The position numbers and the translations under genes are program-made. Below, in pieces: positions 30,272 to 50,158 of a stretch of 64,000 nt of DNA. The stretch lies in NCBI GenBank assembly GCA_965247265.1, contig OZ252002.1, positions 1,205,031 to 1,269,030 on the forward strand, written 5' to 3'. How positions within the stretch are numbered: the first letter of the stretch is position 1; each line of letters opens with the position of its first letter. Origin of the DNA: Gammaproteobacteria bacterium. GTDB lineage: Bacteria; Pseudomonadota; Gammaproteobacteria; UBA4575. The notes under the pieces are model-generated. The model made no database searches, was not told the origin of the DNA, and saw only the letters and a list, made by a program, of their open reading frames with translations.

Positions 30272-30486
30272 TTTTAAGGTACTCAATTCAATCGACGACA
30301 ATTGTAACCGGCGACGCATAAGATTCTTTTAGTAAAATCTAAAGGTATTACGACATTTCTCCATTATGCACTTCCATTGGCTGCAGTAGTTGTTTTGGCT
30401 TTCTAAATTTGTACGTTGAATGCATATTATTTCGATCGCCTAATGAGTAATAGATTCCTAATAAGTGATTTATAAAGTCTACCTTT

Positions 30487-30519
30487 GGAATGACCGCTAT
30501 TGGCTGAAAGCAGACATTC
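30487..30519 (+). repeat. palindromic intergenic element, copy B of 8 (divergent)
   Basis: GGAATGACCGCTATTGGCTGAAAGCAGACATTC. Confidence 0.7.
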
Positions 30520-30854
30520 GGTAATATAGAAATTATTTGTTTCTGCCAGAGCTAGTAAGTATTTGATTTGATGAAAATTCGCTTATCGATTTTATTAATA
30601 CTTATTTATTATCAAATCTTATTTGAGGGTTCTAAAGTATACCTATTACTATCTAATAGACGATCTATAAGAAAAGTAAATTTTACCGATTAATCAAGTA
30701 GTTAATACTTAATTTTTTCTGTGAGTAGGGTGATAAGAAATCTTTTTGAAGGCTCATGAGGTTAATTCGAGACTAGAATTAGAACCTGTCGATGCCACAT
30801 AAAATATTTTTTCGAAAATAATAATCTAGAGGTAATTACAGGAGGATCCATCCA

Positions 30855-31967
30855 ATGATAATTCGAGATAAAGAAGTACTTGTTCCTACCAGTATAGTGG
30901 GCAACTATCCTAACCCACGTTGGTGGGATCAACTATGGGCACATAATTTTACCGGAGATCAAGCATGTCCTGATGCGAAGGAGCGTGAAGCGTTGGAAGA
31001 TGTAATTACATCTATCGCGCATGACCAGGAAATGGCCGGGCTAGATATCATCTCAGATGGTCGCGTGCAAGGTGATAATTATGTCGATCAGATTGTGTAT
31101 TACTACCTGAAGCGTCTTGGCTACAGTATGCATGGGGAATATATGACTACACCACTTTATAGCGACTTGCACACGGTAACATGCTATCGAGATATTAAAC
31201 GATATGGGCCTATCATGATTCAACAGGCTAGAGCGTTGCAACGGGCTACGGACAAACCGATTAAAGTCCAATACACAGGAGTTCAAGCATTAGCTCAATG
31301 TACAAACGATAAATTTTATAAGTCCAGTTACGATCGCGCGATGGCGATAGCCGCAGCCTTGAACGAAGAAATACTTGAATTAGATGGCATGGGTATAGAT
31401 TTCATACAATTGGATGAATTTACATGGCCTTACTTATTTGAGGACTGGGCAATCGAAGCATACAACCGATGCGTTGATGGTGTGAAAAATTCTAAGATTG
31501 TAACGCACGTCTGTTGGGGAAATTACAAAGGTACTTACGGGTATTACATGGAAGAGGGAGCAGAGGATTTTGATATTACCAAACGAAAAGGTGAAAACCC
31601 GAGTAATAAAGCGGAGACCATTATACCAAAGTGTTATGAAGCTAATTTGGATGTAATTAATATTGAAAATTGCGGACGTTGCGAGGGTGAGCTGGATGTT
31701 CTGAAAAATCATCCACTGCCGGATAACATGTACTTTTGGGCGGGTGTTATCGATATTAAAAGCACTATTGTAGAGACTGCTGATGAAGTCGCAGATCGCA
31801 TTCGTAATTTACTCAAGTATGTTCCTGCAGATCGCCTTGGCATTACTACCGATTGTGGCCTGATTCATTTTTGGCGCTACATTGCTTTCGAAAAGATGAG
31901 AGCACTTGTAGAAGGTACCAAGATTGTGCGGGAAGAGTTACAACAAAAATCCAAAAAAGCGGCCTGA
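30855..31967 (+). CDS. MetE C-terminal-domain-like Zn-dependent alkyl/methyltransferase (candidate epoxyalkane:coenzyme M transferase-like enzyme)
   Basis: 370 aa. N-terminal VPTSIVGNYPNPRWW. Zn-ligand pattern His-x-Cys (THVCWGN) plus a distal Cys (TTDCGL), as in cobalamin-independent methionine synthase family proteins. Confidence 0.7.
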   Translation: MIIRDKEVLVPTSIVGNYPNPRWWDQLWAHNFTGDQACPDAKEREALEDVITSIAHDQEMAGLDIISDGRVQGDNYVDQIVYYYLKRLGYSMHGEYMTTPLYSDLHTVTCYRDIKRYGPIMIQQARALQRATDKPIKVQYTGVQALAQCTNDKFYKSSYDRAMAIAAALNEEILELDGMGIDFIQLDEFTWPYLFEDWAIEAYNRCVDGVKNSKIVTHVCWGNYKGTYGYYMEEGAEDFDITKRKGENPSNKAETIIPKCYEANLDVINIENCGRCEGELDVLKNHPLPDNMYFWAGVIDIKSTIVETADEVADRIRNLLKYVPADRLGITTDCGLIHFWRYIAFEKMRALVEGTKIVREELQQKSKKAA

Positions 31968-32002
31968 TAACCTATAAAAAATGAATTAAGGAGAATTAAT
32001 CA

Positions 32003-32212
32003 ATGCCTGTTCTTACACTGCATTGCCCTAACTGTGAACGAAACTTCAAAGGTATGGTGATGTTCGGAGCAACAATGCCTGAAGTATGGGTTTGCTCGGT
32101 ATGTAAAAGTGACCGAGCAACTCCTATACACGAAGAGAATCATTCTCATCCTTGGGCGAAAGATCCATGTGATCATGATTCCCATAAAACCTGTCCTTGT
32201 TGCGTGGTGTGA
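32003..32212 (+). CDS. small Cys/His-rich zinc-ribbon protein, hypothetical
   Basis: 69 aa. CPNC ... CSVC ribbon, then a HEENHSHPWAKDPCDHDSHKTCPCC tail. Wedged tightly between operon genes. Confidence 0.5.
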   Translation: MPVLTLHCPNCERNFKGMVMFGATMPEVWVCSVCKSDRATPIHEENHSHPWAKDPCDHDSHKTCPCCVV

Positions 32213-32214
32213 CG

Positions 32215-33159
32215 ATGAGTGCACTCTCCATTTCAACTGCTGAGAACAAGTGTACTGATATCGAAGCATTAGCTTTAATGGTAGAAAGTGGAAATTGTTT
32301 GGCAGTTGGCGGTGGCTTATCTTCACGCGAACCAATGGCGCTGATCCGTTCAATTATTCGCAACAATGTTAGCAATCTAACGGTTGTTGGTTCTGCTCAT
32401 GGTATCGATATTGATTTGTTATGTGGCGCTAATGCTGTATCTGCATCGCAAGAGAGCTATGTAGGTTTTGAACAAGATTTTGGCATGGCGCAAAACTATC
32501 GGCAGGGTTGCGAAAGTGGAAAAATAGAAATACAAGACAATTGTTGTTATACCTTGGTGCAACAACTTCGTGCCTCGATTCAAGGTCTGCCGTTTATGCC
32601 TATACAGTCTGTTCGAGGCACTGATTTTGAAAAAAATCCACGATATAAAACGATACAGTGTCCTTATTCTGGCGAGGACATATTAGTGGTACCTTCACTT
32701 ACACCTGATGTTGCAATTCTTCATGCACAGTATGCTGATTCTCATGGTAATTTGAGAATAGAAGGTCCTCCTGTCGTTGATTTACTATTTGCGCATGCAT
32801 CTAAAAAAGTATTAGCAACTGTGGAGAAAATTGTAACGAGCGAGGAAATGCAACAACTGGGTGGTGCAAATATTCCTTATTTTTACGTAACAAATTTTGC
32901 AAAAGTACCAATGGGTGCGCATCCAACGGCTTGCTATCCTTTTTATGCATATGATCGTGAGCATACAAAATTGTACGTGTCTGCTGCTAAAGAAGGACCA
33001 GCTGCATTCCAAAATAAATATTTAAAGCATTTTGTTTATGACTGTGAAAGTCATGATGAATATCTTGATCGAATTGGTGGCGCAAACACGAAATCAAAAT
33101 TATCGAGTTGGAAAGAGTCAAATGATGCATGGATGGAGCTGTATAAGGAAAGTGCGTAG
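32215..33159 (+). CDS. glutaconate CoA-transferase subunit A-like protein (family I CoA-transferase fold)
   Basis: About 314 aa from the ATG at 32215, which is 2 nt after the upstream stop. ESGNCLAVGGGLSSREPMALIRSII ... LTVVGSAHG ... ILHAQYADSHGNL. Confidence 0.75.
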   Translation: MSALSISTAENKCTDIEALALMVESGNCLAVGGGLSSREPMALIRSIIRNNVSNLTVVGSAHGIDIDLLCGANAVSASQESYVGFEQDFGMAQNYRQGCESGKIEIQDNCCYTLVQQLRASIQGLPFMPIQSVRGTDFEKNPRYKTIQCPYSGEDILVVPSLTPDVAILHAQYADSHGNLRIEGPPVVDLLFAHASKKVLATVEKIVTSEEMQQLGGANIPYFYVTNFAKVPMGAHPTACYPFYAYDREHTKLYVSAAKEGPAAFQNKYLKHFVYDCESHDEYLDRIGGANTKSKLSSWKESNDAWMELYKESA

Positions 33160-33161
33160 AC

Positions 33162-34016
33162 ATGGAACACAGCTGTACACTGGGTGAGTTGCTCATCGAT
33201 CAATTAGCGCGAACTGTTGATGACAACTCATTAGTATTCCATGGTTTCGGATCACCTTTAGTTCAAATAGCACTGCATGTTGCTAAACGTGTATACGCTC
33301 CCAACTTAGTGCTAGTAGCAGGCGCTACCTATGGCGTTAACCCAAATCCTCCTTTTATTGCACCCACGACTAACGACTGGGTACATGATCGAAATGCCGA
33401 ATGCCATTTGAGTATTGGAGAATTATTCGATTTGTCTGCGAGTGGACGTCTGGGACGAATGTTTTTATCAGGTTTACAAATTGATCGGTGGGGTAATACC
33501 AACGTCACTCAACTGGGACGTAAAGCTCTTAAACTAAAACTACCAGGTGGTGGTGGTGCCTGTAATTTATCGTGTAATACTAAATACATTACGTTGTGGA
33601 CTGCTGCTCATCGTGCAGAACCTGTAAAAGGAAAGCGACGCTATCGCATTGTTTCACAGTGTGACTACATTACCGGTTTAGGACACAGGAATACAGATGG
33701 AACTACAAGACAGCAACTTGGATACCGAGGTAACGGACCGCAGTGGCTGGTAACTGACTTAGGTGTTTTCGACTTCAATAAAGATGGGCATTTACGATTA
33801 CATTCCCTATACCCTCATACTTGCGTAAATGATGTTATTGAAAATACGGAGTTTGAACCAAAAATCAAAAAAGAACTTAAGACCGTTTCACTTCCTTCGA
33901 TTGAAGTGCTTTCGATAATTCGAAATCTGGATCCTCTTCGAATTTATGAAAGAGAATTATTACCTAAGGACCGTTCCGTGACATTAAATGGAAGTAAGCA
34001 TGCAGCAATTTGTTGA
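33162..34016 (+). CDS. glutaconate CoA-transferase subunit B-like protein lacking the catalytic Glu motif
   Basis: 284 aa. VAKRVYAPNLVLVAGATYG, LQIDRWGNTNVT, PQWLVTDLGVFDF, DVIENTEFEP. No E(S/N)G motif anywhere in the protein. Confidence 0.7.
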   Translation: MEHSCTLGELLIDQLARTVDDNSLVFHGFGSPLVQIALHVAKRVYAPNLVLVAGATYGVNPNPPFIAPTTNDWVHDRNAECHLSIGELFDLSASGRLGRMFLSGLQIDRWGNTNVTQLGRKALKLKLPGGGGACNLSCNTKYITLWTAAHRAEPVKGKRRYRIVSQCDYITGLGHRNTDGTTRQQLGYRGNGPQWLVTDLGVFDFNKDGHLRLHSLYPHTCVNDVIENTEFEPKIKKELKTVSLPSIEVLSIIRNLDPLRIYERELLPKDRSVTLNGSKHAAIC

Positions 34017-34944
34017 AAAAAGTTCAGAAGATAATACTCAATCAGATTCTTTAACTAGGTATCGAGATAAAAAAAATGTAGTTCCATTACCTTATCGGGG
34101 AACTAGTGTTCAGAAATATGCAGGAGAAATGACTGAAAAAGCAATTCAATCAGCATTCCTAGGAAAAGAAGCCTATCGACGTACCGAATTCATTGTACTT
34201 AAAGGAAGTGATAACAATAATGCAGTTGTCGCGATTCAGAAATCAGACTATGAGCCTTTATTTTCAAATATTACTCATGTTGAAGTACTAGGACTCCCAG
34301 ATAATTGCATATATATAAATGACAGTAGTGTGGATTGTGCTAATCGGTCTGCATTGGCAGAACTCGCATTTCGCAATCAAATTGGAAAAGAGCAGATATG
34401 TATTGTTGAAGGTAAGTATGATCATGTAAATTTCATATATCGGCCTGATCCGCTTGTGTTACAAGTATTGGAAGTAGAGCCACCGTCACCTCCTAAACTA
34501 TATAGCATGGTACAACAGGTATTAGGCTATGCTGATTTACCGCCTATTCGTGTTGAACTGAAAACAATCGATGTAAGAGATTTATGTAGCAGTGTAGATC
34601 CTGAATGTTATTTGTTGCCATGTAGATCTGGCGGCATGGATCAGCTAAAAAAACCAGTATATTTCTTGGATGAACGTCCCAAGCAACGTCAAAACTGGGT
34701 TTTGATCGGCTGTGAAAGAAGTCTTCAATTTCATCGACACTACTATGGTGATGAGCCACCACGTGTTGAGATGTGTCCTCGTAAACTCAATTCAACTGAC
34801 GACGAAGCTACTATACTTAAGTGTTGTTTGCTTGAGTTTGATATTGAGAGAGAAGGTAACACGATGATTGTTCCATGGGGTGCTGATCTGGCAATGGTAG
34901 AAGCAGCATTGCGAGAACTTTCAAGGGAGATTGAATATGTTTAA
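33988..34944 (+). CDS. hypothetical protein (Cys-rich, no recognised domain)
   Basis: 318 aa with an alternative ATG at 34000. It overlaps both neighbours, so it is translationally coupled inside the operon. Confidence 0.55.
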   Translation: MEVSMQQFVEKSSEDNTQSDSLTRYRDKKNVVPLPYRGTSVQKYAGEMTEKAIQSAFLGKEAYRRTEFIVLKGSDNNNAVVAIQKSDYEPLFSNITHVEVLGLPDNCIYINDSSVDCANRSALAELAFRNQIGKEQICIVEGKYDHVNFIYRPDPLVLQVLEVEPPSPPKLYSMVQQVLGYADLPPIRVELKTIDVRDLCSSVDPECYLLPCRSGGMDQLKKPVYFLDERPKQRQNWVLIGCERSLQFHRHYYGDEPPRVEMCPRKLNSTDDEATILKCCLLEFDIEREGNTMIVPWGADLAMVEAALRELSREIEYV

Positions 34945-35803
34945 GTCTGCTTGGGATGGGATTCACGTAATCAGTGACTCCATGAAAGAGCGTGTGGAGC
35001 GACCCAAAAACATAGGTATGACAATGGTGATCGATACTTGTGTTGGTCTACAGATGTTGAGGGATGTGCTCCAGCTTTCAAATAAATATATAGATCATTG
35101 GAAGTGTAGCTATGGGGTATCTGCAGTGATGCCTTCTAACATTCTTCATCAAAAACTCGAGATGCTAAATGAATATAACATTAACACTTTCCCCGGAGGA
35201 ACGTTATTAGAGGCAGCTATCATTCAGAAAAATTGTCAATCATATATGGTGAGAGCTAAAGAAATTGGATTTCATTCAGCTGAAATTTCTGATGGGACCA
35301 TAACATTACCAAGTGTGCGAAGACGTAATGCAATTTTGTGCGCACTAGAAAATGGATTAATTCCAATTACAGAGGTTGGAAAAAAAGATCCCACGAAGCA
35401 GCCAAGTCCTGAGGAGCTTTCCGACCAAATTCTGCAAGATTTATATTGGGGCGCTGAGTATGTGATTGTCGATGCAAGGGAATCTGGATGTGGAGTCGGT
35501 ATATTTGATCAGCAAGGCGATATGAAATTGGATGTATTTATGAAAATTTTATCGGCAATTGGTAAAAAAGTAGAAAAAGTTATTTGGGAAGCACCGTTAA
35601 AAAAACAACAAGTCGAACTTATAAAGAAAATTGGACCAAACGTAAATTTAGGAAATGTCAATCCAATGGATATTTTGCTCTTGGAATCATTGCGACTAGG
35701 ACTTCATTATGAATCATTGCGGGAAATTGCAGATGAATCTGTACAAAGTGGTAGATGGGATCCAGAAGCAATCGAATCTACTGATAAAAAGAAAACTGCC
35801 TGA
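34931..35803 (+). CDS. comA: (2R)-phospho-3-sulfolactate synthase (ComA family)
   Basis: 290 aa. FPGGTLLEAA, AEISDGT, TEVGKK, DARESGCGVGIFD, WEAPLKKQQVELIKKIGPNVNLGNV, LESLRLGL. This is near-diagnostic of the ComA family. Confidence 0.9.
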   Translation: MNMFKSAWDGIHVISDSMKERVERPKNIGMTMVIDTCVGLQMLRDVLQLSNKYIDHWKCSYGVSAVMPSNILHQKLEMLNEYNINTFPGGTLLEAAIIQKNCQSYMVRAKEIGFHSAEISDGTITLPSVRRRNAILCALENGLIPITEVGKKDPTKQPSPEELSDQILQDLYWGAEYVIVDARESGCGVGIFDQQGDMKLDVFMKILSAIGKKVEKVIWEAPLKKQQVELIKKIGPNVNLGNVNPMDILLLESLRLGLHYESLREIADESVQSGRWDPEAIESTDKKKTA

Positions 35804-35816
35804 GAATTAGAAAAAA

Positions 35817-37334
35817 ATGAGAGAAGTAATTCCAGATTCCAATATGGCGTTGTGTATCGATGGTCGCTTATCACAACCTCCTGAAGAAGTATTGGTTTCA
35901 AGTGCATTCGCACAAGAACTTCATGAGCAGTTATGGTTATTAAAAGAAATGAGTTGGGTGGATATGGCGCATGTAATCAGCTTAATTGAAGCCGGTGTCA
36001 TAGAGAATAAAGTTGGCGCTGACTTATTAAGTGCATTACGTAAATTACAAGAAAATTCAACAGAATTTCAGCCAGATCCAATGTGCGGCGATCTATTTAC
36101 AAACAGAGAAGTATGGTTAGAGCAACACACTAGTGCAGTGGGATGGTTATGCGCAGGAAGAGCACGTAGAGAGGGTACTACAGTATCTTATCACTTAACA
36201 ATTAAAAAGTTATTACTTACGTTGGCAGATGAGATATCAAAACTAATACACGCAATGTTAGTGCAGGCAGCCTCCCACAGTGCATCAATCATGCCTGATT
36301 ACACCTATATGCAGGCAGGACAACCAACATCATTTGGACATTATTTACTTTCATTTGTATTCATGCTTACGCGTGACCTTGCGCGCATCAATTCTCTCTA
36401 CGATAGAGTCGATTGTTGTCCGGCCGGATGTGGAGGTATTAACGGATCGACGTTACAGATTGATAGAGACAAATTAGCAACACTATTAGGTTTCGCTAAG
36501 CCCGTCATGCATACAAGAGATGCAATGTGGCAATCCGATATTTCCATTGAAGTAGTATCAACATTAACTTCTATATTTATTACTTTAGATCGATTAAGTG
36601 AAGATTTGCTCTATTTCGTTACGAAAGAATTCGATTACATTGAATTACAAGATGCCTATTCAAGAGCCAGCAAAATCATGCCACAGAAAAAAAATCCCTA
36701 TGGGCTAGCGTATATTCGCGCACTGGCAAATAAGGTGATTGGAATACAAACTATGGTGGTTGCAACACAACGCACACCAACAGGGCAAATCGATAATCGC
36801 ATATTCGTATATGGTGAAATTCCAAATGCTCTCAATATGTGTATAGATGGCATTTGTTTATTAACTAAAATATTAGAAGGATTGCAATTTAATACTCCAC
36901 GTGCACTCAATAGAGTAAAAGAAAGCTTTGCTATGGCCACAGAGTTGGCTGAATTAATTTCGACTGAAAATAATTTGGATTATAGAACTGCACATAAGAT
37001 TATTGGAAAGATTGTTCGTAATTATTCTCAATCTAAAAAATATTTATCTGAGCTAACAGAATTAGAGTTAAACGAAGTTGCAAACGAGGTAATAGGCCGT
37101 TCAATATCATGTCCTAAGCATATCTTGGAGGCATTGAAATCACCGGAAGCTGCTATCGAGAAAAAGTCTGGTTTGGGAGGGGCGTCTCAAGCCAGAGTAA
37201 ATGAGATGATTGAATATAATAAAGGTGAGGTAAATCATTATCAAAGTTGGATAACAAATGAACGAGGAAAATTAAAACATGCAGAAAGTTCATTATTAAA
37301 ACATACAGAAAAAATAATAAATCAAGCTCAATGA
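35817..37334 (+). CDS. aspartase/fumarase-superfamily lyase, argininosuccinate-lyase-like
   Basis: 505 aa. Signature loop SRASKIMPQKKNPYGLAYIRA (compare GSSLMPQKKNP of ArgH). Confidence 0.8.
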   Translation: MREVIPDSNMALCIDGRLSQPPEEVLVSSAFAQELHEQLWLLKEMSWVDMAHVISLIEAGVIENKVGADLLSALRKLQENSTEFQPDPMCGDLFTNREVWLEQHTSAVGWLCAGRARREGTTVSYHLTIKKLLLTLADEISKLIHAMLVQAASHSASIMPDYTYMQAGQPTSFGHYLLSFVFMLTRDLARINSLYDRVDCCPAGCGGINGSTLQIDRDKLATLLGFAKPVMHTRDAMWQSDISIEVVSTLTSIFITLDRLSEDLLYFVTKEFDYIELQDAYSRASKIMPQKKNPYGLAYIRALANKVIGIQTMVVATQRTPTGQIDNRIFVYGEIPNALNMCIDGICLLTKILEGLQFNTPRALNRVKESFAMATELAELISTENNLDYRTAHKIIGKIVRNYSQSKKYLSELTELELNEVANEVIGRSISCPKHILEALKSPEAAIEKKSGLGGASQARVNEMIEYNKGEVNHYQSWITNERGKLKHAESSLLKHTEKIINQAQ

Positions 37335-38683
37335 CTTCACTATTTTTAGAGTCTTCTATTTATCAAAATTCTTGGAGCACAGAATCGCTTCGTAAAATTT
37401 TTGATGAAAAAGCAAGAATTAGAACGTGGTTGGGAATATTAACTGTATTAGCTGAAGTTCAATCAAAATTTAAGTTAATACCAGAAACAGCTGGAAACTC
37501 TATTAAGAATTTTTGTAATGAAATCACAATTGATGATGAGTTTCTTAAAGATACAAAAATAGGATTTGAGCAAAGTGGCCACTCTATGCAAGGGTTCATT
37601 GATGCTTTAACAAAGCGTGGAGACGAAGATGTAAAGAATTGGCTATATTACGGTGCTACTGTACAAGATGTAACAGACACTTGGTTTTCAATTGTTTTAA
37701 GAGACGCTCGTGAGCAATTTCTTTTAGATTTAAATGCGATACGTTTAACCGCAAAGAATCTTATAAGTGAGCATCGCGATACTATCATGCCAGGGCGTAC
37801 CCATGGTCAACATGGTTTGCCCATAACGTTTGGGTTTAAAGTTGCGGGCTGGGCATGTGAGCTCGATCGTCATCGAACTCGATTATCACAGCTAGGAAAT
37901 CGCATGGACGAGGGGCAATTATGCGGAGGAGTTGGATCACTGTCATCACTCGGTAGTCAAGGTTTGGAGATACAAAAGGAATTTTGTGACCAACTTGGAT
38001 TACGTGAACCGATCATTTCTTGGACTTCTAGTCGTGATGTATTTGCAGAGTGGGGTCAATTATTAGTACTTATTACTGGAACTGCAGATCGTATTGGTCA
38101 TGAGATTTATAACCTTCAGCGTACAGAAATAGCAGAGCTAGTTGAGAACTCACCAATAGACACTGTAGGCAGCATTACAATGCCGCATAAACAAAATCCA
38201 GAAATATCAGAACATTTGGGTACGCTTGCTAGAGTCGTTCGTCACAATGCTGCAATTCTTCTTGAAGGACTGGTAAATGATCATGAACGGGATGGTCGCT
38301 CTTGGAAAAGTGAGTGGCATGTTTTACCGCTTATTACTTTAGTATCGGGTAAATCATTAGAGCTTCTAAAATTAATATTATCTAACTTAGAAGTGCATAC
38401 AGATCAAATGCAAAAGAATTTAGAAATTAGCGCCGAGCAAGTATTTTCAGAAGGTGTAATGTTGGCATTAGCTAAAATTCTTGGGAAAAATCAAGCTCAA
38501 AAAATAGTTTACAGAGAGGCCAAATATGCACGAGAAAAAGGAGTGTCTTTTAAAGAGTCTATTTTACGTAACCCCGAAATTTCATCTAATTTAAGTAAAG
38601 AGAATATTGAAGAAATTTTCAGCTATAAGAATCGGTTAGGCTTATGTACTGCGATGGTTGATAGGGTGCTTGATAAGATATGA
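37331..38683 (+). CDS. aspartase/fumarase-superfamily lyase, adenylosuccinate-lyase / CMLE-like
   Basis: 450 aa. MPGRTHGQHGLPITFG and signature loop GSITMPHKQNPEISE (compare GSSAMPHKRNP). ATGA overlap with the previous gene. Confidence 0.8.
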   Translation: MTSLFLESSIYQNSWSTESLRKIFDEKARIRTWLGILTVLAEVQSKFKLIPETAGNSIKNFCNEITIDDEFLKDTKIGFEQSGHSMQGFIDALTKRGDEDVKNWLYYGATVQDVTDTWFSIVLRDAREQFLLDLNAIRLTAKNLISEHRDTIMPGRTHGQHGLPITFGFKVAGWACELDRHRTRLSQLGNRMDEGQLCGGVGSLSSLGSQGLEIQKEFCDQLGLREPIISWTSSRDVFAEWGQLLVLITGTADRIGHEIYNLQRTEIAELVENSPIDTVGSITMPHKQNPEISEHLGTLARVVRHNAAILLEGLVNDHERDGRSWKSEWHVLPLITLVSGKSLELLKLILSNLEVHTDQMQKNLEISAEQVFSEGVMLALAKILGKNQAQKIVYREAKYAREKGVSFKESILRNPEISSNLSKENIEEIFSYKNRLGLCTAMVDRVLDKI

Positions 38684-39672
38684 ATACTCAAGTTGTTACG
38701 CCCAATATGGTTGGCGAGTTTCATCGTTGTGAGCTTGCAGAATTTCCAACTCCTTTACAACGATTTAAAAAACTAGAGAAAAATGCAAATAATATTGAGC
38801 TATGGGTGAAACGCGACGATTTAATAAGCTTTGGTTTTGGAGGTAACAAAGTTCGAACGCTTGAGTTTATTGCTGCAGATGCCTTAAATCGTAGAGCAAA
38901 AACATTAATTACGGGCGCAGGAGTGCAATCCAATCATGTGCGTGCAACCGCTGCAGTGGCGGCTTATCTAAATCTAGAGTGCATTGCGATTTATTGGGGG
39001 AATCCACCTGAAGACATAAAAGGTAACTATTATCTTACCAAAATGTTGGGTGCAGAAACTAGATTTACAAACGATACCGATCGAAGTTCCGTAGATACAA
39101 TGATTCGGTTTATAGGACAAGAAGTGATGATTGGTGGCGGACTACCCTATTTAATCCCACGTGGAGGAGCCTGTGCGTTAGGAGTTATCGCTCATCTTTT
39201 TGCGGCACAAGAACTTTTTGAGCAATGTAAAAGAAACAGTGTGAAAGCGGATCTTGTTACGCTTGCCGTGGGATCTGGTGGGACGATAGCGGGTTGGATT
39301 CTTGCAAAAATATTATATAAACATCCTTGGCGTATCGAAGGCTTCACCGTTAGTCGACCTTCTTCAGAGTTAAAAGACATTATTCAAAATTTAGTGTATG
39401 ACGCAGCTAAAATATTAAACGAAAAAGTAAATATAAGTTTAGAACAAATTGTCATTCATGATGGATTCATTGGTGATGGTTATGGAGTACCAAGTGTCAA
39501 AGGAAACAATGCCATTAAAGAGGTTGCGATACAGCAAGGAGTATTTTTTGACCCAGTGTATACAGGAAAAGCATTTGCTGGGTTTTTGGAATATGTACAG
39601 AATGGTTATTACAAAGATATTCATACTGCAGTGTTTTTACACACAGGGGGAGAGCCAGCTCTATTTATATAA
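38680..39672 (+). CDS. PLP-dependent enzyme of the D-cysteine desulfhydrase / ACC deaminase (DcyD) family
   Basis: 330 aa. FPTPLQRF, KRDDLISFGFGGNKVRTLEFIAADAL (PLP Lys), GVQSNHVRATAAVAA, DPVYTGKAFAG, HTGGEPALF. ATGA overlap with the previous gene. Confidence 0.85.
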   Translation: MNTQVVTPNMVGEFHRCELAEFPTPLQRFKKLEKNANNIELWVKRDDLISFGFGGNKVRTLEFIAADALNRRAKTLITGAGVQSNHVRATAAVAAYLNLECIAIYWGNPPEDIKGNYYLTKMLGAETRFTNDTDRSSVDTMIRFIGQEVMIGGGLPYLIPRGGACALGVIAHLFAAQELFEQCKRNSVKADLVTLAVGSGGTIAGWILAKILYKHPWRIEGFTVSRPSSELKDIIQNLVYDAAKILNEKVNISLEQIVIHDGFIGDGYGVPSVKGNNAIKEVAIQQGVFFDPVYTGKAFAGFLEYVQNGYYKDIHTAVFLHTGGEPALFI

Positions 39673-39687
39673 TTGTGGCTTAAACAT

Positions 39688-41133
39688 ATGACTAACAATA
39701 AGCATAAAAATTTTAACGAATCACAATCGGATGTCACTTCTGTAGAAAACGAGATTAGTGATATTATGAATCTAGTTGAGAAAGCTAGACAGGCTCAATC
39801 GCAAATAAGTGCTTATACACAAGAAGAGGTAGATGAATTAGTAGCTTCGATAGCATGGAATGTCATTAAAAATAGAGAAGAGCTCGCACGCATAGCAGTG
39901 GAAGAAGGAGGATTTGGAAATTATGAAGATAAAGTAGCAAAAATCTACAACCGTGTAACCGGGACGTTAGCCGATATGCAGTCGATTAAGACAGTTGGTG
40001 TGGTTGAAGAGTTGCCCGATATCGGAATCATCAAGATTGCAAAACCTGTAGGAGTCATCGGTGCACTCATTCCAGCAACGGGCCCGGATGCTACGCCTCC
40101 TGTTAAAGCATTATGTGCCATGAAGGGAAGAAATGCGCTGATCGTGGCACCACATCCTAGAACAAAAAGAAGTTCAGCAAGAGTAGTCGAATGTATACGA
40201 GAAGGCTGTATACAAGTGGGTGCGCGAGAGGATTTGGCACAAGTGATTACAGATCCTTCGATTCAAAAAACAAAACTTTTAATGGAAAACGTAGATCTAA
40301 TTGTAGCAACTGGTGGCATGAATATGGTCAAGTCTGCATATAGTTCAGGCAAGCCTGCTTATGGTGTAGGTGTGGGAAATGCGGTACATGTTGTTGATGA
40401 GACTGCAGATTTGGATGATGCAGCTGAAATGATTGCCAAAGCAAAGACCTTCGATTATGCAACGAGTTGTTTAGCAGACAATGCTGTTGTAATTCATGAA
40501 AGTGTTTATGAGAAGTTAATTGATAAGTTGGTAGCGTTAGGTGCTCATTTATGTAATGAAGAAGAAAAATTGAAACTTCAAAAATTAATGTGGCCAGATG
40601 ATGCGCATATACCTTCTGCCGATGTAATTGCAAAATCTGCGCAATCAATTGCAAATAAAGCTCAAATCAACATTCAGCCCGGTACAAATTTTCTTTTAGT
40701 TAAAGAAACTGGAGTAGGAAATGATTATCCGTTTTGTGGGGAAAAGCTTTCTGTGGTTTTGACGATTTATCAATATGCCGATAGCATCGAAAATGCAATA
40801 GATCTCGTAAACAGCATTACAGATTATCAGGGATTGGGGCATACCTGTGGAATTCATTCAAATTCACAAGCCAATATAAATTCTGTTGCACATAATACGA
40901 AAACTGCTCGAGTAATGGTGAATCAAAACCTCAATGAAGGTGCAGGGAGCCCTCGCAATGGACTTCCTTATACATTGTCGCTTGCTTGTGGAACATGGGG
41001 TGGCAATATAACAACTGAAAATGTCAATGTTAGAAATTTTATCAACTTAACTTGGGTCTCCACACCAATTCAAGCTCGAACCTTTACTGAGGAACAGTTG
41101 TTTGAAAATTATTGGACTAAGTATGGTAAGTAG
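39688..41133 (+). CDS. CoA-acylating aldehyde dehydrogenase-like protein (EutE/PduP/SucD-type ALDH)
   Basis: About 481 aa from the ATG at 39688. PVGVIGALIPATGPDATP, IVATGGMNMVKSAYSSGKPAYGVGVGN, Cys in FDYATSCLADNA. Confidence 0.7.
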   Translation: MTNNKHKNFNESQSDVTSVENEISDIMNLVEKARQAQSQISAYTQEEVDELVASIAWNVIKNREELARIAVEEGGFGNYEDKVAKIYNRVTGTLADMQSIKTVGVVEELPDIGIIKIAKPVGVIGALIPATGPDATPPVKALCAMKGRNALIVAPHPRTKRSSARVVECIREGCIQVGAREDLAQVITDPSIQKTKLLMENVDLIVATGGMNMVKSAYSSGKPAYGVGVGNAVHVVDETADLDDAAEMIAKAKTFDYATSCLADNAVVIHESVYEKLIDKLVALGAHLCNEEEKLKLQKLMWPDDAHIPSADVIAKSAQSIANKAQINIQPGTNFLLVKETGVGNDYPFCGEKLSVVLTIYQYADSIENAIDLVNSITDYQGLGHTCGIHSNSQANINSVAHNTKTARVMVNQNLNEGAGSPRNGLPYTLSLACGTWGGNITTENVNVRNFINLTWVSTPIQARTFTEEQLFENYWTKYGK

Positions 41134-41175
41134 TCGAAATATAGCAAGTCTAAAGTTAATTTAGAGGCATACAAA

Positions 41176-42684
41176 ATGAAAGAATATACATTAGGTAATG
41201 TAGAAGATTTAAAAAATTCAAAAGATAGAAGACATAATCGTCTCAACGATGTTGGTATAAAAAGAAAACCTCCATCCGCTATCAAGCCAGTTCAAAACAT
41301 AGAAGAACTGATTGAGGATATTAATAGTAAAAATTATGATGCCGTCATCGTGGGAAGCGGTCCAGGTGGTTCAACCGTAGCAAGAGAGTTAGCCAGAGCT
41401 GGAAAAAAAGTAGCCGTTCTTGAATTTGGGAAAGATCATAGAGAAAAATGGTATTACGGTACAGTTGCAGGGCCCTTTATCTACACTGAGCAACGAGGCT
41501 TCTTAAAATCAAAAGAAGGGGTCACGATTGTTCGCCCGATGCTAACAGGAGGGGCTACTAATATGTTTGCAAGTGCCGCATCAGGACCTCCATCTTGGTG
41601 GCTAAGTAAAACGGGTGTAGATATCGAATCTGAAGTTAACGAGACCATTGATGAACTTCAAATTGAAGCCTTACCAGAAGAGTTGATGGGCTCGGCATCA
41701 CAACGTATTGGGGAAGCAGGTCGAGATCTTGGGATGGATTGGGTGCCACAAATAAAATTCATCCATCCAAAACGTTGTTATTCGAAATTAGATTGTGGTG
41801 ATAAGTGCATGTTTGGGTGTCGTTGCGGCGGAAAGTGGACTGCAAATGATTATTTAGATCAGGCTATTGAAGCTGGAGCCACTGTTATTACCGAGTGTAA
41901 TGTTCACAAAGTTGAGACACAAGATGGTGTCGCTACGGGTGTTAGTGCAGAAGTACAAGGAAAACACTTTACACTTAACAGTAAGGTCGTGATCGTTTGT
42001 GCAGGAGGCATCGGTACGCCTCGTATCCTACAGAATTCTGGTATCCATGATGCTGGAGATGCATTGGGCGTTGACACTACATTTGTAGTCTATGGTGTGA
42101 TTCAAGATAAAGGCAATACGGGCGATCCGCCTATGACGATCAGTTGCTGTGATGATGAAAATGGTTTGATGTATTCCACGCTTACCCAGCCATTCGGTTT
42201 ATTTACACTGACTCAATATTACAAAGGCTGGGGACATTTGAAAAAAGTACCTAAGTTCCCACGTATGCTTGGAGTCATGGTTAAGATAAAAGAAAATTTA
42301 AAAGGCTATGTGGCGCCCCATGGAGAAATCAGTATGCCTTTGCTACAAGAAGATCATCTTCGAGCCAATATTGGGTTTAGTACAAGCAAAAGTATACTTA
42401 TGAAAGCGGGATGTGATCCTAATACCATATTTTGGAATCCTCCCAGAGGAACTCATCCATGTGCAACCGTACGAATTGGAAAGCATCTAGATTCTGATTT
42501 AAAAACGGTTGCTTTTGATAACTTATATGTATCAGATGCCAGCACATTTCCTTTACCTTTGGTTCGTCCTCCCACGCTTACAATAATCGGACAAAGTAAG
42601 AGATTAGCCAAGCATCTTGTTGGGACTACACTCAAAGACAGTCAATATAAAGATAAAGAGCAAAAAGCAGAATTAGTATCATGA
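41176..42684 (+). CDS. GMC-family FAD-dependent oxidoreductase
   Basis: 502 aa. N-terminal dinucleotide fold YDAVIVGSGPGGSTVARELARAGKKVAVLEFG. C-terminal GTHPCATVRIG ... NLYVSDASTFP. Confidence 0.8.
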   Translation: MKEYTLGNVEDLKNSKDRRHNRLNDVGIKRKPPSAIKPVQNIEELIEDINSKNYDAVIVGSGPGGSTVARELARAGKKVAVLEFGKDHREKWYYGTVAGPFIYTEQRGFLKSKEGVTIVRPMLTGGATNMFASAASGPPSWWLSKTGVDIESEVNETIDELQIEALPEELMGSASQRIGEAGRDLGMDWVPQIKFIHPKRCYSKLDCGDKCMFGCRCGGKWTANDYLDQAIEAGATVITECNVHKVETQDGVATGVSAEVQGKHFTLNSKVVIVCAGGIGTPRILQNSGIHDAGDALGVDTTFVVYGVIQDKGNTGDPPMTISCCDDENGLMYSTLTQPFGLFTLTQYYKGWGHLKKVPKFPRMLGVMVKIKENLKGYVAPHGEISMPLLQEDHLRANIGFSTSKSILMKAGCDPNTIFWNPPRGTHPCATVRIGKHLDSDLKTVAFDNLYVSDASTFPLPLVRPPTLTIIGQSKRLAKHLVGTTLKDSQYKDKEQKAELVS

Positions 42685-42742
42685 ATTAACGCTCATGCAA
42701 ATTTAATATTGCATTAGGTTTTTTTATATTAAAGATAGAACA

Positions 42743-43405
42743 ATGGAAAAACTAGAATTAGTTAGCCGTAGACTGTGTCCTTTTGCACAAAGAGCAGCCA
42801 TTGTTTTAAACCATAAAAACGCAAATTATAAAATTACATATGTGGATTTAGAGAATCCACCAGATTGGTTTAATAAAATCTCACCATTAAAGAAAGTCCC
42901 GCTTCTAAAAATTGGTGAAAATAATGTTCTATTTGAATCAGCGGTTATTTGCGAGTACATAGATGATGTTACGCCTAGCAACATAAGGCCAGAAAACGCT
43001 CTCCAGTTGGCATTCAACCGAGCATGGATTGAGTTTGGTTCAACTTGTATCATTGATCAATATATGCTGCTATTAAAAAAAACGGAGCAAGAGTTTAAAG
43101 AACAAGCAGATCAAATTGTTAATAAATTGAGATTGGTAGAGAACAAATTAGAAAGTTTGCCATTTTTCAATGGTGAGACATTCTCATTAGTGGATGCTAC
43201 CTATGCACCATTATTTATACGTTATGAAATAATTAATAAAATTATACCCATTTATACAACGCTTGATTTTAAAAAGCTATCAACATGGTCCAAGTCGCTT
43301 CTTGAATTAAGCTTTGTAAAAACATCCAAAGAATCTGATTTCAACACTCAGTATATTAATAAAATTAAAAATTTTGATGGTTACTTGTCTTTAAATGTCC
43401 GCTAG
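42743..43405 (+). CDS. glutathione S-transferase-fold protein with an active-site Cys (omega-class-like)
   Basis: 220 aa. RRLCPFAQRAAIVL ... PDWFNKISPLKKVPLL ... LFESAVICEYIDD. This parallels the CPFA active site and fold of omega-class GSTs. Confidence 0.75.
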   Translation: MEKLELVSRRLCPFAQRAAIVLNHKNANYKITYVDLENPPDWFNKISPLKKVPLLKIGENNVLFESAVICEYIDDVTPSNIRPENALQLAFNRAWIEFGSTCIIDQYMLLLKKTEQEFKEQADQIVNKLRLVENKLESLPFFNGETFSLVDATYAPLFIRYEIINKIIPIYTTLDFKKLSTWSKSLLELSFVKTSKESDFNTQYINKIKNFDGYLSLNVR

Positions 43406-43428: not shown

Positions 43429-44568
43429 TCAATGGTTCAGATTATTTTTCGTAGTATCCTCTTGGCTTAAAAAAGATTCTTGATAAAAAGCGGCTCGGTG
43501 TTCGGGGCGATTTCGCGTATAGCGATCATTCAGCACTTTACGATCCAGGTGTCCGGTTTGGCGTTGACGCAATTCATCCATTATCCCACGATCAGCCAAT
43601 TGAGTCGCATTTTCCAAGCGAATGTTATGAACGATTAAATCGGGTCGTTGCAGAACATCTCTACAGGCGTCCTTAAATAGTTTCCATATGTAGGCGCCTT
43701 TGCTTTTATCTTTCTCAGGCGTAAATTGAAATACCCGTTCATCCTCAGTCGGGCGCCCCATGACTTCTTGAATGGCTTTTATAGCCACAGGTGTGAGCAT
43801 TACCACCTTGGGTTTCTTATTTTTATGTTCCGATCCTGGGATACGAATGTGAGGAGGTGCTTCAAAACGAATCCATTCTTTTCTAAGTTTAATGACTTCA
43901 CCTTTGCGCATGGCCGTCTCATAAAGCACAATTAGCACGAGGGTAACTTCATGATCTAATGTATCAACATAGTGTAATATCTTCTTGAATTCACGAAGAG
44001 AAATGGGTTCTTGATCGCGTCGTCCACGGATCTCATCTTCGGCTCTGAGATCTTTTGGCAGGTCCGGTTCTAATGGCCAATCAAAGGGATCAGCAGGTCG
44101 CCATCCAAAGTTACGTTTGGCATATTCCAAGATGCGTTTAATGGCTTCAATTTCTCTTTTCAGCGTCACCACACTGATGCCACCCTCATCGACTCTTTTA
44201 TAGGCATAGTCTTCGAGTAAGCGTGTGGTAAATTCAAAGAGCTTGTGATGGCCAAGACGCTTTTGGAGTCCGTTGTACATTGAGGTGCCATTTTGTTGAT
44301 AGGATTTATAGCGCAAGGCGCGGCGCTGGATGTATTCATGGGTGACGGCTGCAAATTGGTTGTCATGAGGCAGGCGACCATTTTCCATCGCATACAGGTG
44401 GGCCGCTGGATTGCGTTTTTTCAGCGCTCGTTTTAAATCAAATTCGAGCTCATCCGCCCAACGCTTGGCCGCATGTTTTTCCTCAAAACGTTTCCCAAAT
44501 CGAGCGCCGTCGACTTGCACTTGGGCAAACCATTTTTTACGCGATTTATCAAAAAAGATGCTTGGCAT
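43429..44568 (-). CDS. tyrosine recombinase / integrase (paralogue 1)
   Basis: 379 aa. LYETAMRKGEV (Arg), HNIR (HxxR), TGH, DRYT (Tyr). About half its residues are identical by eye to 48665-49801. Confidence 0.85.
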   Translation of the reverse strand: MPSIFFDKSRKKWFAQVQVDGARFGKRFEEKHAAKRWADELEFDLKRALKKRNPAAHLYAMENGRLPHDNQFAAVTHEYIQRRALRYKSYQQNGTSMYNGLQKRLGHHKLFEFTTRLLEDYAYKRVDEGGISVVTLKREIEAIKRILEYAKRNFGWRPADPFDWPLEPDLPKDLRAEDEIRGRRDQEPISLREFKKILHYVDTLDHEVTLVLIVLYETAMRKGEVIKLRKEWIRFEAPPHIRIPGSEHKNKKPKVVMLTPVAIKAIQEVMGRPTEDERVFQFTPEKDKSKGAYIWKLFKDACRDVLQRPDLIVHNIRLENATQLADRGIMDELRQRQTGHLDRKVLNDRYTRNRPEHRAAFYQESFLSQEDTTKNNLNH

Positions 44569-44740: not shown

Positions 44741-44772
44741 TGAATGACTGCTAACGACCCAAAGCGGACGTA
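44741..44772 (+). repeat. palindromic intergenic element, copy C of 8
   Basis: TGAATGACTGCTAACGACCCAAAGCGGACGTA. Confidence 0.8.
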
Positions 44773-45088: not shown

Positions 45089-45565
45089 ATGATTAAAAGA
45101 AAAAATGAAATTTTGCTTTGGCTAATTTTGGCGTTTGTTTCATCAAACATGGCTATAGCAGAAAATGGACTTAATCGAGATAAATGCCGAGCATCAACTA
45201 ATCCTGAGCTAGTCGCAGATTGTATAGAAGCAAATGTTTATGATCCGTGTGATGATGCAGGTGGCTATGTTCATAGAGCTTTATGTGGATCAGCTCATAC
45301 TGTAGTCGCAGACCGAAAAATAGCTAGTCTTATGCAAAAAATTAGAAAGATTTCAATTAAAGCAGATACATTAAGAGAGTATCAATTACTTGAGTGGTCA
45401 CATCAAAACTGCTCTATATATAGAGAACAATATTGTCGATTTGAGAGTGCTGCAAGCCAAAAGCCCAAGTATTTTGGTGGAGAAGCTCAAGTTTTTTGTA
45501 TGAGAAGAATCACAAAACAAAAAGTTAAGGATTTAAAGAACATTCTGTCAAATAAGTCTGAATGA
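45089..45565 (+). CDS. secreted Cys-rich protein, tentatively DUF1311 (LprI-like)
   Basis: 158 aa with a signal peptide. Contains ADRKIASLMQKI ... EWSHQNCSIYREQYC. Its stop codon lies inside element copy E. Confidence 0.35.
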   Translation: MIKRKNEILLWLILAFVSSNMAIAENGLNRDKCRASTNPELVADCIEANVYDPCDDAGGYVHRALCGSAHTVVADRKIASLMQKIRKISIKADTLREYQLLEWSHQNCSIYREQYCRFESAASQKPKYFGGEAQVFCMRRITKQKVKDLKNILSNKSE

Positions 45566-45591
45566 CCGCTAACGACCCATAGCGAACATTC
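45559..45591 (+). repeat. palindromic intergenic element, copy E of 8
   Basis: TGAATGACCGCTAACGACCCATAGCGAACATTC. Its first TGA is the stop codon of 45089-45565. Confidence 0.8.
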
Positions 45592-47122: not shown

Positions 47123-47173
47123 CTGAATTTTCAGGTTATATACAAGAGAACCATACTCATTCCTAATAAATCT

Positions 47174-47206: not shown

Positions 47207-47260
47207 GATAAAGAAATTTAGGACGAGCAAGGTTGGCATTATCAAATCAGAGTAATTTAA

Positions 47261-50070: not shown

Positions 50071-50158
50071 GCCCGGGTGGCGAAATTGGTAGACTCAAGG
50101 GACTTAAAATCCCTCAGGATAATATCCTGTGCCGGTTCGAGTCCGGCCCCGGGCACCA
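50071..50158 (+). tRNA. tRNA-Leu (anticodon UAA), class II with a long variable arm and encoded CCA
   Basis: Acceptor GCCCGGG / CCCGGGC. Anticodon stem-loop AGGGA-CTTAAAA-TCCCT. Variable arm CAGGATAATATCCTG. T-arm GCCGGTTCGAGTCCGGC. Confidence 0.9.

Follow-up and report, generated by a model that had tools for sequence, protein, structure and literature searches.

A predicted coenzyme M-dependent epoxide module with a lineage-specific set of downstream genes in mobile DNA of Gammaproteobacteria

In 64,000 nucleotides of contig OZ252002.1 (assembly GCA_965247265.1, a gammaproteobacterium of the UBA4575 lineage; hereafter the window), twelve closely spaced, co-directional open reading frames (ORFs) on the + strand at 30855-43405 combine the predicted genes of bacterial coenzyme M (CoM) synthesis with genes for an epoxyalkane:CoM transferase (EaCoMT; EtnE/XecA) orthologue, a GctAB-like pair, an aldehyde dehydrogenase (ALDH), a flavoprotein of the GMC family and a glutathione S-transferase (GST). 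This operon is a genuine CoM-dependent epoxide module, intact and conserved, and we give a probability of about three in four to the reading that it is self-contained and handles short-chain epoxides. An earlier note on this DNA had proposed that the operon makes CoM and conjugates an epoxide with it; both parts of that proposal are supported, the first by scores above the curated cut-offs for the Xcb proteins and the second by orthology to XecA. The variant described here, with a GMC flavoprotein and a GST and lacking 2-ketopropyl-CoM oxidoreductase/carboxylase (2-KPCC), a short-chain dehydrogenase/reductase (SDR) and an acyl-CoA synthetase, is new. Its host lineage is unreported in the literature that we searched (Porisulfidus; sponge with CoM or etnE; EaCoMT with GST or GMC), which held no report of the GMC/GST variant or of a link to sponge symbionts.

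Related loci were collected by a scan with an XcbA profile over one genome per species (80 loci) and by contig look-ups (three more), giving 83, two of which may duplicate scan loci. Presence and absence are counted for the 15 loci of the window's lineage (the window included) against the 68 others, for which counts are lower bounds, many contigs being incomplete. The order of the window's operon is found again in 14 related loci, and all twelve genes, including those for the zinc ribbon, the GMC protein and the GST, are under purifying selection, with ratios of nonsynonymous to synonymous divergence (dN/dS) of 0.03-0.2 for each gene in comparisons with L002, L003, L004 and L083.

Epoxyalkane:CoM transferase and CoM synthesis

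The first gene encodes a stand-alone MetE catalytic domain of 370 residues (Pfam Meth_synt_2, PF01717, 95 bits), and its placement between EaCoMT and methionine synthase falls clearly on the side of the former. The protein is 64% identical to XecA of Xanthobacter autotrophicus Py2, 62-63% identical to the EaCoMT of Haliea ETY-M and 45-46% identical to the homologues in Nocardioides JS614 and Mycolicibacterium chubuense NBB4, against 30-31% at most for the best methionine synthases (plasmid methionine synthases compared), and every MetE NCBIfam model scores under its cut-off. These values mirror the gap between >65% and <35% identity described previously (Toppings et al., PMC11507031). Residues H218, C220 and C334 do not vary when the protein is aligned with Py2 XecA and Haliea EaCoMT, and they coincide with the HxC and C motifs of a solved core-MetE. 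In XecA and MetE these three positions are the zinc ligands, and the product of Py2 xecA is the enzyme characterised biochemically. By sequence comparison, the MetE-like protein is an EaCoMT orthologue.

The 69-residue, Cys-rich ORF that follows etnE is the twelfth gene of the operon and fell below the list of ORFs of at least 80 residues. Homologues of 62-69 residues stand after etnE in a majority of such clusters across phyla, in 15/15 lineage loci and, outside the lineage, in no fewer than 36 of 68; in Py2 the homologue is the hypothetical protein Xaut_4866, encoded directly 3' of xecA (L208:15200-15400). These proteins share the pattern MPVYxLxCPDCxHxFKG...WVCSxC...HPW...CPCC, match Pfam Zn_ribbon_8 (21.5 bits for the window ORF, 46 bits for the homologue in L074) and show a dN/dS of 0-0.2. 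By its position the gene corresponds to the old 'xecB' ORF, and its product might assist the zinc transferase EtnE as a partner protein or as a metallochaperone. The ORF is absent from the 13 genes listed for Methylohalobius crimeensis, and the study of the methanotroph clusters does not mention it (PMC11507031).

Five proteins encoded contiguously at 33988-39672, in the order xcbA-B-C-D-E, score above curated NCBIfam cut-offs and strongly support the prediction of a complete bacterial CoM pathway, in line with the earlier note's reading that the operon makes CoM. XcbA, which that note had left unnamed, reaches 468 bits with the CoM_XcbA_fam model (cut-off 150) and matches Pfam DUF7714; ComA/XcbB reaches 289 bits with TIGR03849 (cut-off 280) and 266 bits with Pfam ComA. 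The two lyases pass the exception-level models for XcbC (NF052535, 586 bits, cut-off 575) and XcbD (NF052536, 603 bits, cut-off 600) and stay below the cut-offs of argH (275.5 bits on the xcbC gene, cut-off 279.5) and purB (251 bits on the xcbD gene, cut-off 326). Similarly, the pyridoxal phosphate (PLP) enzyme reaches the XcbE model (NF052537, 460 bits, cut-off 450) and not that of CuyA (260 bits, cut-off 450), and D-cysteine desulfhydrase models also remain under cut-off. Current NCBIfam models now recognise the CoM genes and EtnE automatically. The sequence motifs quoted in the earlier note are all present in the translations: FPGGTL, EISDG, TEVGKK, ARESG, WEAPLKKQQ and VNLGN in ComA, SKIMPQKKNP in XcbC, GSITMPHKQNP in XcbD, GGNKVRTLEF in XcbE, THVCWG and TTDCG in EtnE, and LCPFAQ in the GST.

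The same gene order is found in related loci and on plasmid pXAUT01 of Py2 (xecA-(xecB)-xecC-xecD-xecE and xcbABCDE), where xcbA-E encode proteins 42-61% identical to those of the window. The roles of the five Xcb enzymes were demonstrated in vitro with the Py2 proteins: phosphoenolpyruvate and sulfite are joined to phosphosulfolactate, phosphate elimination yields sulfoacrylate, addition of cysteine gives 3-sulfopropionylcysteine, the PLP enzyme converts this to sulfoethanethioaldehyde, and XcbA reduces the thioaldehyde to CoM (PMC9457059). XcbA of the window is 58-61% identical to Py2 XcbA, and six cysteines (C107, C212, C242, C263, C279 and C280) are invariant across 16 homologues and are candidates for the [2Fe-2S] or disulfide chemistry of XcbA.

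Some relatives carry interrupted CoM genes. In L083, xcbC, xcbD and a LysR gene are split, L003 has a stop in xcbA, and xcbA of Py2 lies in two frames (L208:18729-19630), owing either to errors in long-read assembly or to genuine decay in certain lineages. In the window these genes are all intact.

The GctAB-like pair and the predicted downstream enzymes

The earlier note had described a GctAB-like pair, and this stands as far as the fold is concerned: both subunits carry the CoA_trans fold (Pfam PF01144). The catalytic glutamate of CoA-transferases, however, is missing. The alpha subunit matches Pfam CoA_trans at 1e-22, PDB entry 1POI_A at 1e-39 and AibA at 3e-31, and the beta subunit finds its top PDB match in the AibB decarboxylase (1.5e-22), with 1POI_B behind it (8e-18). 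AibB has Cys56 in place of the catalytic Glu of CoA-transferases (PMC7756340). In the window protein the equivalent position falls in VAGATYG (Ala/Gly), with no Glu within 2 residues, and Ala/Gly occupies it in 68 of 70 cluster-linked GctB homologues (L001-L083); Glu is kept (IEGATY) only in two Chloroflexi loci, L015 and L046. Because the class I catalytic glutamate is missing, the pair is doubtful as a CoA-transferase and is probably not a true one. By analogy with AibAB and IpdAB, a non-transferase role on an acyl-CoA enolate appears more likely. The Myxococcus 3-methylglutaconyl-CoA decarboxylase AibA/AibB and the mycobacterial IpdAB are, like the window pair, GctAB-fold heterodimers with the transferase Glu replaced; similarity between AibB and the window beta subunit is nevertheless low (E ~1e-22), with Ala/Gly in the window against Cys56 in AibB, and the substrates of AibAB and IpdAB are, as far as known, unrelated to CoM. 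The pair lies directly upstream of xcbA in nearly all loci, and a 'glutaconate CoA-transferase' that is Glu-less in 68/70 cases puts the annotation used in the ethene and vinyl chloride literature in doubt.

The ALDH has the SauS model NF047625 as its top NCBIfam match (506 bits, under the equivalog cut-off of 600), and its top PDB matches are acylating succinic semialdehyde dehydrogenase, acetaldehyde dehydrogenase and AdhE, which places it in the CoA-acylating class by predicted function. Homologues with 62-66% identity are encoded in 34/68 of the other etnE/xcb loci. The flavoprotein is a divergent, short member of the GMC family: PF00732 (64 bits) and PF05199 (33 bits) both score over their cut-offs, a GSGPGG dinucleotide-binding motif is present, GTHPCATVRIG resembles the usual active-site His motif, and the best PDB match (E 3e-10) covers fragments only. 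Its dN/dS is ~0.05. The gene neighbourhoods of its more distant homologues (56-63% and ~50% identity) are unrelated and say nothing about its substrate.

The GST matches Pfam GST_N_2/3 and GST_C and is closest in the PDB to pyrimidodiazepine synthase and GSTO1. Its LCPFAQR segment lines up with FCPFAER in GSTO1 and with FCPYAQR in pyrimidodiazepine synthase, which places a catalytic Cys at helix 1, and its dN/dS is 0.13-0.14. Omega-class GSTs (human GSTO1, insect pyrimidodiazepine synthase, LigG-type lyases) share the CPF cysteine, the length and the domain order with the window protein, although at E values of only 1e-21 to 1e-23. Enzymes of this class cleave thioethers alpha to a carbonyl, such as S-phenacylglutathione and the LigG substrate. 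As this is the chemistry that CoM release would need, we propose the GST as a candidate for that step. In a separate contig (L084, ENA ctg3103, 2.68 Mb), the stretch 8596-12971 holds a 63%-identical homologue of the short GMC gene beside a divergently transcribed GST gene and a phage-type integrase, away from any etnE gene; such a pair could be the source of the lineage-specific GMC and GST genes.

Distribution and the lineage-specific variant

A core of etnE, zinc ribbon, gctAB, xcbA-comA-xcbCDE and ALDH genes recurs in the 83 loci, which belong to many lineages; in the 68 loci of methanotrophs, Burkholderiales, Alphaproteobacteria, Chloroflexi and others it occurs with extra genes inserted. 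The 14 relatives from metagenome-assembled genomes (MAGs) of Candidatus Porisulfidus, Thiotrichales and other Gammaproteobacteria (L001-L013 and L083) have the same 11-12 genes in the same order as the window, at 74-92% nucleotide and 68-98% protein identity, but their flanks are unrelated to those of the window and they lack its hairpin repeats and adjacent integrase. The closest, L002, comes from an uncultured Thiotrichales MAG and is 92% identical in nucleotides over the operon; other close relatives are gammaproteobacterial MAG chromosomes of 1.6-2.1 Mb, and several are MAGs of Ca. Porisulfidus (L003-L013). The genus Porisulfidus lives in symbiosis with sponges (PMC12988363; PMC5361782), and 'Candidatus Porisulfidus' has no entry in the NCBI taxonomy. 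An exact-sequence search of public assemblies gave no record of the window's EtnE.

A 2-KPCC-type disulfide oxidoreductase (DSOR) is present in 0/15 lineage loci and 38/68 others, an SDR in 0/15 and 43/68, a BetA-like GMC protein in 0/15 and 25/68, and an NDP-forming acyl-CoA synthetase in 0/15 and 37/68. Conversely, the short GMC protein is found in 15/15 lineage loci, the omega-GST in 10/15 and a disulfide reductase of dihydrolipoyl-dehydrogenase (DLD) type in 13/15, each against 0/68 elsewhere. The earlier proposal that the SDR/2-KPCC chemistry of Xanthobacter is replaced in this operon agrees with these counts. The DSOR of the canonical clusters is a genuine 2-KPCC orthologue (M. aurea, 802 bits to PDB 1MO9), whereas that upstream of etnE in the window's lineage is of dihydrolipoyl-dehydrogenase type (NF004939, 480 bits, cut-off 435). 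The BetA-like GMC of canonical clusters is different from the short GMC protein and would independently tie the GMC class to a 2-hydroxyethyl-heteroatom substrate.

Searches by tblastn with the 2-KPCC orthologue and for SDR homologues gave no match in the 64-kb window or in the 15 lineage loci, and at E <=1e-5 none for 2-KPCC, SDR, acyl-CoA synthetase or DLD-type DSOR in the whole window. Family scans of the larger ORFs likewise found no monooxygenase, 2-KPCC-type DSOR or SDR in the window, so that scans and tblastn (the latter for 2-KPCC and SDR) agree with the earlier note on the absence of a monooxygenase, a DSOR carboxylase and an SDR there. Nor did a monooxygenase show up among the genes listed for the related loci or when these loci were screened by homology. 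In L001, L003-L013 and L083 the DLD-type reductase gene lies 1-3 kb upstream of etnE and a major facilitator superfamily (MFS) transporter gene lies downstream; this transporter is absent from the whole window.

Three known systems can be set beside the operon. On Py2 pXAUT01 an alkene monooxygenase adjoins xecA, and 2-KPCC and two SDRs carry out the downstream chemistry, all of which the window lacks; the Py2 locus in turn has no GctAB-like pair, no homologue of the SauS-like ALDH and no annotated GMC or GST. Nocardioides sp. JS614 and M. chubuense NBB4 carry on plasmids an EtnE-type CoM zinc transferase that is only 45-46% identical to that of the window. JS614 and NBB4 are ethene and vinyl chloride oxidisers, and their actinobacterial plasmids bear the etnABCD monooxygenase genes. 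To our knowledge their downstream route to acetyl-CoA is still hypothetical, and we know of no biochemical work that establishes the conversion of 2-hydroxyethyl-CoM to acetyl-CoA in ethene and vinyl chloride oxidisers. The downstream steps of the ethene route are given the status 'predicted' in recent work (PMC11507031).

The methanotroph clusters described by Toppings et al. in 2024 combine etnE, 'glutaconate CoA-transferase' AB, a 'sulfoacetaldehyde dehydrogenase' and CoM genes, occur in ~10% of methanotroph genomes, and sit in genomic islands with mobility genes and no dedicated alkene monooxygenase (PMC11507031). In M. crimeensis, which has no alkene monooxygenase, ethylene induces most of the cluster proteins, and detoxification is the role that the authors propose for the cluster (PMC11507031). 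The loci of M. crimeensis 10Ki, Methylocapsa aurea and others are ~60% identical to the window in EtnE, GctAB, XcbA and ALDH. In contrast to the window, they carry a 2-KPCC-type DSOR, an SDR and an NDP-forming acyl-CoA synthetase, often a BetA-like GMC gene and, in M. crimeensis, a MEDS regulator, while the short GMC and omega-GST of the window are absent from them. The earlier note had regarded both host and architecture as unusual for CoM metabolism. The GMC/GST variant is indeed new and its host lineage unreported in the literature searched, but the general island architecture of etnE, gctAB, CoM genes and a SauS-like ALDH without an alkene monooxygenase is already published and widespread.

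Proposed pathway and alternative explanations

In the cycle that we propose, XcbB-E and XcbA would make CoM from phosphoenolpyruvate, sulfite and cysteine, and the EtnE zinc enzyme would use the CoM thiol to open epoxyethane or a close analogue, which gives a 2-hydroxyalkyl-CoM thioether; both steps are strongly supported by homology. The GMC flavoprotein might then oxidise the hydroxyl to an aldehyde or ketone in place of the SDR, and the SauS-like ALDH could convert 2-oxoethyl-CoM to the CoA thioester of carboxymethyl-CoM. CoM may be freed by thiol-dependent alpha-thioether cleavage instead of by 2-KPCC, the candidates being the omega-class Cys-GST and/or the Glu-less GctAB-like pair, which would stabilise an acyl-CoA enolate in the manner of AibAB and IpdAB, and the end product would be acetyl-CoA. 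Recycling would need a disulfide reductase, which for the organism of the window would be encoded elsewhere.

As for the role of the operon, detoxification or scavenging of epoxides made by the community or host, as proposed for methanotrophs, is most likely; we favour it because no monooxygenase was found nearby and the closest relatives are small-genome MAGs, some from sponges. A more specific version is that reduced-genome, partly sponge-associated Gammaproteobacteria run a 2-KPCC-independent CoM cycle, in which EtnE, the GMC protein and the acylating ALDH lead to S-(2-sulfoethyl)thioglycolyl-CoA, and CoM is freed by the Cys-GST together with a Glu-less GctAB-fold lyase. In this complete form the proposal is speculative, and we consider it unlikely to hold in every part. 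If true, it would fill in the steps that the ethene pathway lacks, with the GctAB-fold protein acting as a lyase and not as the assumed CoA-transferase, and it would make CoM-based epoxide detoxification a service in animal holobionts, the epoxide arising for example from ethylene co-oxidation by ammonia- or methane-oxidising partners. The twelve-gene operon, kept in ~15 genomes, represents a minimal and different gene set for the unresolved pathway that could be reconstituted in vitro. CoM metabolism would thereby reach small-genome, partly sponge-associated relatives of sulfur oxidisers, which points to epoxide stress or use in holobionts.

Several points weigh against this picture. The roles given to the GMC protein, ALDH, GST and GctAB-like pair are putative. 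In the view of Toppings et al., the SauS-like ALDH belongs to CoM biosynthesis, as a possible functional analogue of XcbA, and not to catabolism (PMC11507031); that the operon holds both XcbA and the ALDH argues against the ALDH being a mere XcbA analogue. Homologues of the GMC protein at 56-63% identity occur outside any CoM context, and the GST is missing or degenerate in L003, L010 and L011 and may be dispensable. The window has no DLD-type disulfide reductase, whereas 13/15 loci of the lineage have one (L002 being too short to tell), so the partner for thiol/disulfide recycling is not evident there. Moreover, the scan for monooxygenases covers the 64-kb window, which leaves room for growth on alkenes, and the host setting is deduced from relatives of an operon that is itself mobile.

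The alternative that survives best, although we hold it to be improbable, is that the operon forms the lower half of a growth-supporting ethene or propene assimilation pathway, with the monooxygenase encoded elsewhere in the genome, so that the organism makes the epoxide itself and gains carbon from it. Such a role would fit an end product of acetyl-CoA, the etnE-like genes on the JS614 and NBB4 plasmids and the monooxygenase that adjoins xecA in Py2; on the other hand, neither the window nor the gene lists and homology screens of the related loci contain a monooxygenase, the chromosomes of the relatives are small, and the published monooxygenase-free precedent favours detoxification (PMC11507031).

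It is less probable still that CoM serves another use here, either because an EtnE-like enzyme alkylates it with a non-epoxide electrophile (a halogenated C2/C3 compound or a host-derived alkylating agent) or because it acts mainly as a protective thiol. Replacement of the canonical downstream enzymes in the lineage could reflect a different substrate, and a haloalkane-dehalogenase-like hydrolase is encoded at 14256-15119. Sponge tissue, the environment that the relatives suggest, is rich in halogenated and electrophilic metabolites, which counts in favour of this alternative. Against it, the identity to XecA and the invariant active-site region argue for the same reaction class, and the ALDH and GctAB-like genes common to canonical epoxide clusters are retained.

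Far less plausible is a catabolic operon for C2/C3 sulfonates (sulfolactate, cysteate, isethionate or sulfoacetate), in which ComA, a CuyA-like lyase, an IseJ-like GMC protein and SauS would be degradative. The best NCBIfam match of the ALDH is SauS and XcbE also matches CuyA, and the succession of GMC protein and SauS would fit a Cupriavidus pathway that reportedly leads from isethionate through sulfoacetaldehyde to sulfoacetyl-CoA. Yet XcbE passes its own curated cut-off while the CuyA and SauS matches remain below theirs, on which grounds we rejected the CuyA/SauS reading; it also leaves XcbA, XcbC and XcbD without a role, the operon has no Xsc, sulfite exporter or sulfonate transporter, and an EaCoMT orthologue heads it. 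That the lyases and the MetE-like gene are housekeeping argH, purB and metE clustered by chance was rejected on model scores and identities as having next to no probability: the argH score on xcbC is barely under its cut-off, but the XcbC and XcbD exception models beat argH and purB by >300 bits, the MetE-like protein is much closer to XecA than to methionine synthases, and 83 loci keep the gene order and the linkage with XcbA, ComA and XcbE.

Operon layout, mobility and flanking DNA

The coordinates of the operon and of the associated mobility features are collected in Table 1. The packing of the twelve genes and the overlaps given in the earlier note were all found in the sequence: ATGA overlaps at 37331 and 38680 could be read directly at the junctions, overlaps of 29 nt and 14 nt occur at 33988 and 34931, and the '2-nt gap at 32213' is a TGA-cg-ATG junction at 32210-32217. 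Because of this junction, gctA most likely starts at ATG 32215 and not at TTG 32197, which would give the longest ORF. The remaining gaps are 0-58 nt, so that the 29-nt overlap and a gap of 58 nt are the extremes of the spacing. Along the operon, scans for promoters and terminators gave counts at or below shuffle expectation and revealed nothing on regulation. Synonymous divergence (dS) from L002, the closest relative, is uneven, at 0.07-0.16 from etnE to xcbA and 0.25-0.51 from comA to the GMC gene (30855-42138), which suggests a recombination mosaic inside the operon.

Table 1. Genes of the CoM operon and associated mobility features in the window
Feature	Coordinates	Strand	Basis or remark
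etnE/xecA, predicted epoxyalkane:CoM transferase (2-hydroxypropyl-CoM lyase), 370 aa	30855..31967	+	XecA identity, Meth_synt_2
XecB-like zinc-ribbon protein, 69 aa, 8 Cys	32003..32212	+	homologues after etnE, Zn_ribbon_8
GctA-like alpha subunit, CoA_trans fold	32215..33159	+	Pfam, PDB matches
GctB-like beta subunit without catalytic glutamate	33162..34016	+	AibB match, motif alignment
xcbA (DUF7714), predicted final reductase of bacterial CoM synthesis	33988..34944	+	NCBIfam CoM_XcbA_fam
comA/xcbB, predicted phosphosulfolactate synthase	34931..35803	+	TIGR03849, Pfam ComA
xcbC, ArgH-like, predicted phosphate elimination from phosphosulfolactate	35817..37334	+	NF052535
xcbD, PurB-like, predicted 3-sulfopropionylcysteine synthase	37331..38683	+	NF052536
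xcbE, predicted PLP enzyme of CoM synthesis	38680..39672	+	NF052537
SauS-like ALDH, predicted CoA-acylating	39673..41133	+	NF047625 below cut-off, PDB matches
Short GMC-family flavoprotein, proposed 2-hydroxyalkyl-CoM dehydrogenase	41176..42684	+	GMC_oxred_N, GMC_oxred_C
Omega-class-like Cys-type GST, proposed thiol-dependent C-S lyase or disulfide handler	42743..43405	+	GST_N, GST_C
Diverged hairpin copy, left edge of DNA block common to relatives	30487..30524	+	L002 has the same copy in the same place
Hairpin copy closing the operon-plus-integrase block	44741..44771	+	repeat scan
Tyrosine recombinase, convergent with operon, 24 nt downstream of GST gene	43429..44568	-	Pfam Phage_integrase
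Second tyrosine recombinase, 47% identical paralogue of the first	48665..49801	-	closes hairpin array
Third tyrosine recombinase, unrelated to the first two	52447..53574	-	where GC rises from ~40% to 52%
tRNA-Leu(taa)	50071..50158		second recombinase lies between last hairpin and tRNA

The CoM module has moved horizontally, as homology with the relatives stops at the edges of the operon and hairpins and integrases flank it. The blastn block shared with relatives starts at 30486-30575 (L002, L003) and ends at 42621-43389, with flanks unrelated to those of the window in every comparison. A 30-nt hairpin, (G)AATGACCGCTAACGACCCAAAGCGGACATT(C), also written (G)AATGACCGCTAAYGACCCAAAGCGGACATT(C), is present in 8 same-strand copies, only between 28957 and 48656, with starts at 28957, 30487, 44741, 45041, 45559, 47174, 47257 and 48626; a degenerate pattern of the element gives these 8 matches against 0 expected. 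Compared with an integron, in which an IntI-type integrase adjoins attC-bounded cassettes, the array here has hairpins that bound single-ORF units and recombinases that match only generic Xer/phage-integrase models and converge on the cassettes. The repeats and the integrase that the earlier note had placed around the locus are thus present, and the claim of a mobile island is supported in the form of a hairpin-delimited cassette array with tyrosine recombinases.

The hairpin could be a site of recombination or an element of attC type, although at 30 nt it is shorter than a classical attC. It matched no Rfam family. The motif, with a near-invariant loop, is widespread in metagenomes and occurs in at least 120 stretches of them. 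The hairpin loci that were fetched, 80 in number, have a guanine plus cytosine (GC) content of 35-65% and mostly one copy, and contained no homologues of the window recombinases.

One part of the earlier description did not stand. Low GC content does not set the operon apart, as its 39.0% matches most of the window (39.4% for 1-16 kb) and only 54-64 kb is richer (51.9%), and foreignness within the window on GC grounds was therefore rejected. In the relatives, operon GC is 38-43%, lower than some flanks (up to 56%).

Among the other hairpin cassettes (45089-48532), one holds a 158-residue ORF without a family and another a beta-lactamase-family/esterase-like protein (45761-47122); a fragment of an old yellow enzyme (OYE)/N-ethylmaleimide reductase at 47981-48532 is truncated and matches profile positions 188-365 of 365 only. 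GC jumps from ~40% to ~52% at ~54 kb. Shortly past this step, on the GC-rich side, a pair of 49-nt inverted repeats (54157-54205/54952-55000) is 92% complementary, and after it follow RNase_H_2-like and helicase fragments and then a locus for ExbB/ExbD/TonB and a TonB-dependent receptor. A large low-GC island may have its right end in this region (~54000-55000).

On the other side of the operon, a remnant of an insertion sequence at 13065-14156(-), with ORFs for an rve integrase core and HTH_21, lies between two modules of ATP-binding cassette (ABC) transporter and acyl-CoA metabolism genes. A segment of higher GC (45%) at 16045-24396 encodes a branched-chain-type ABC transporter, an amidase (820 bits) and the alpha, beta and accessory proteins of a nitrile hydratase. 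The beta subunit is split at 23657, with its N- and C-domains in different frames; a frameshift, a natural division of the gene or an error in sequencing could account for this.

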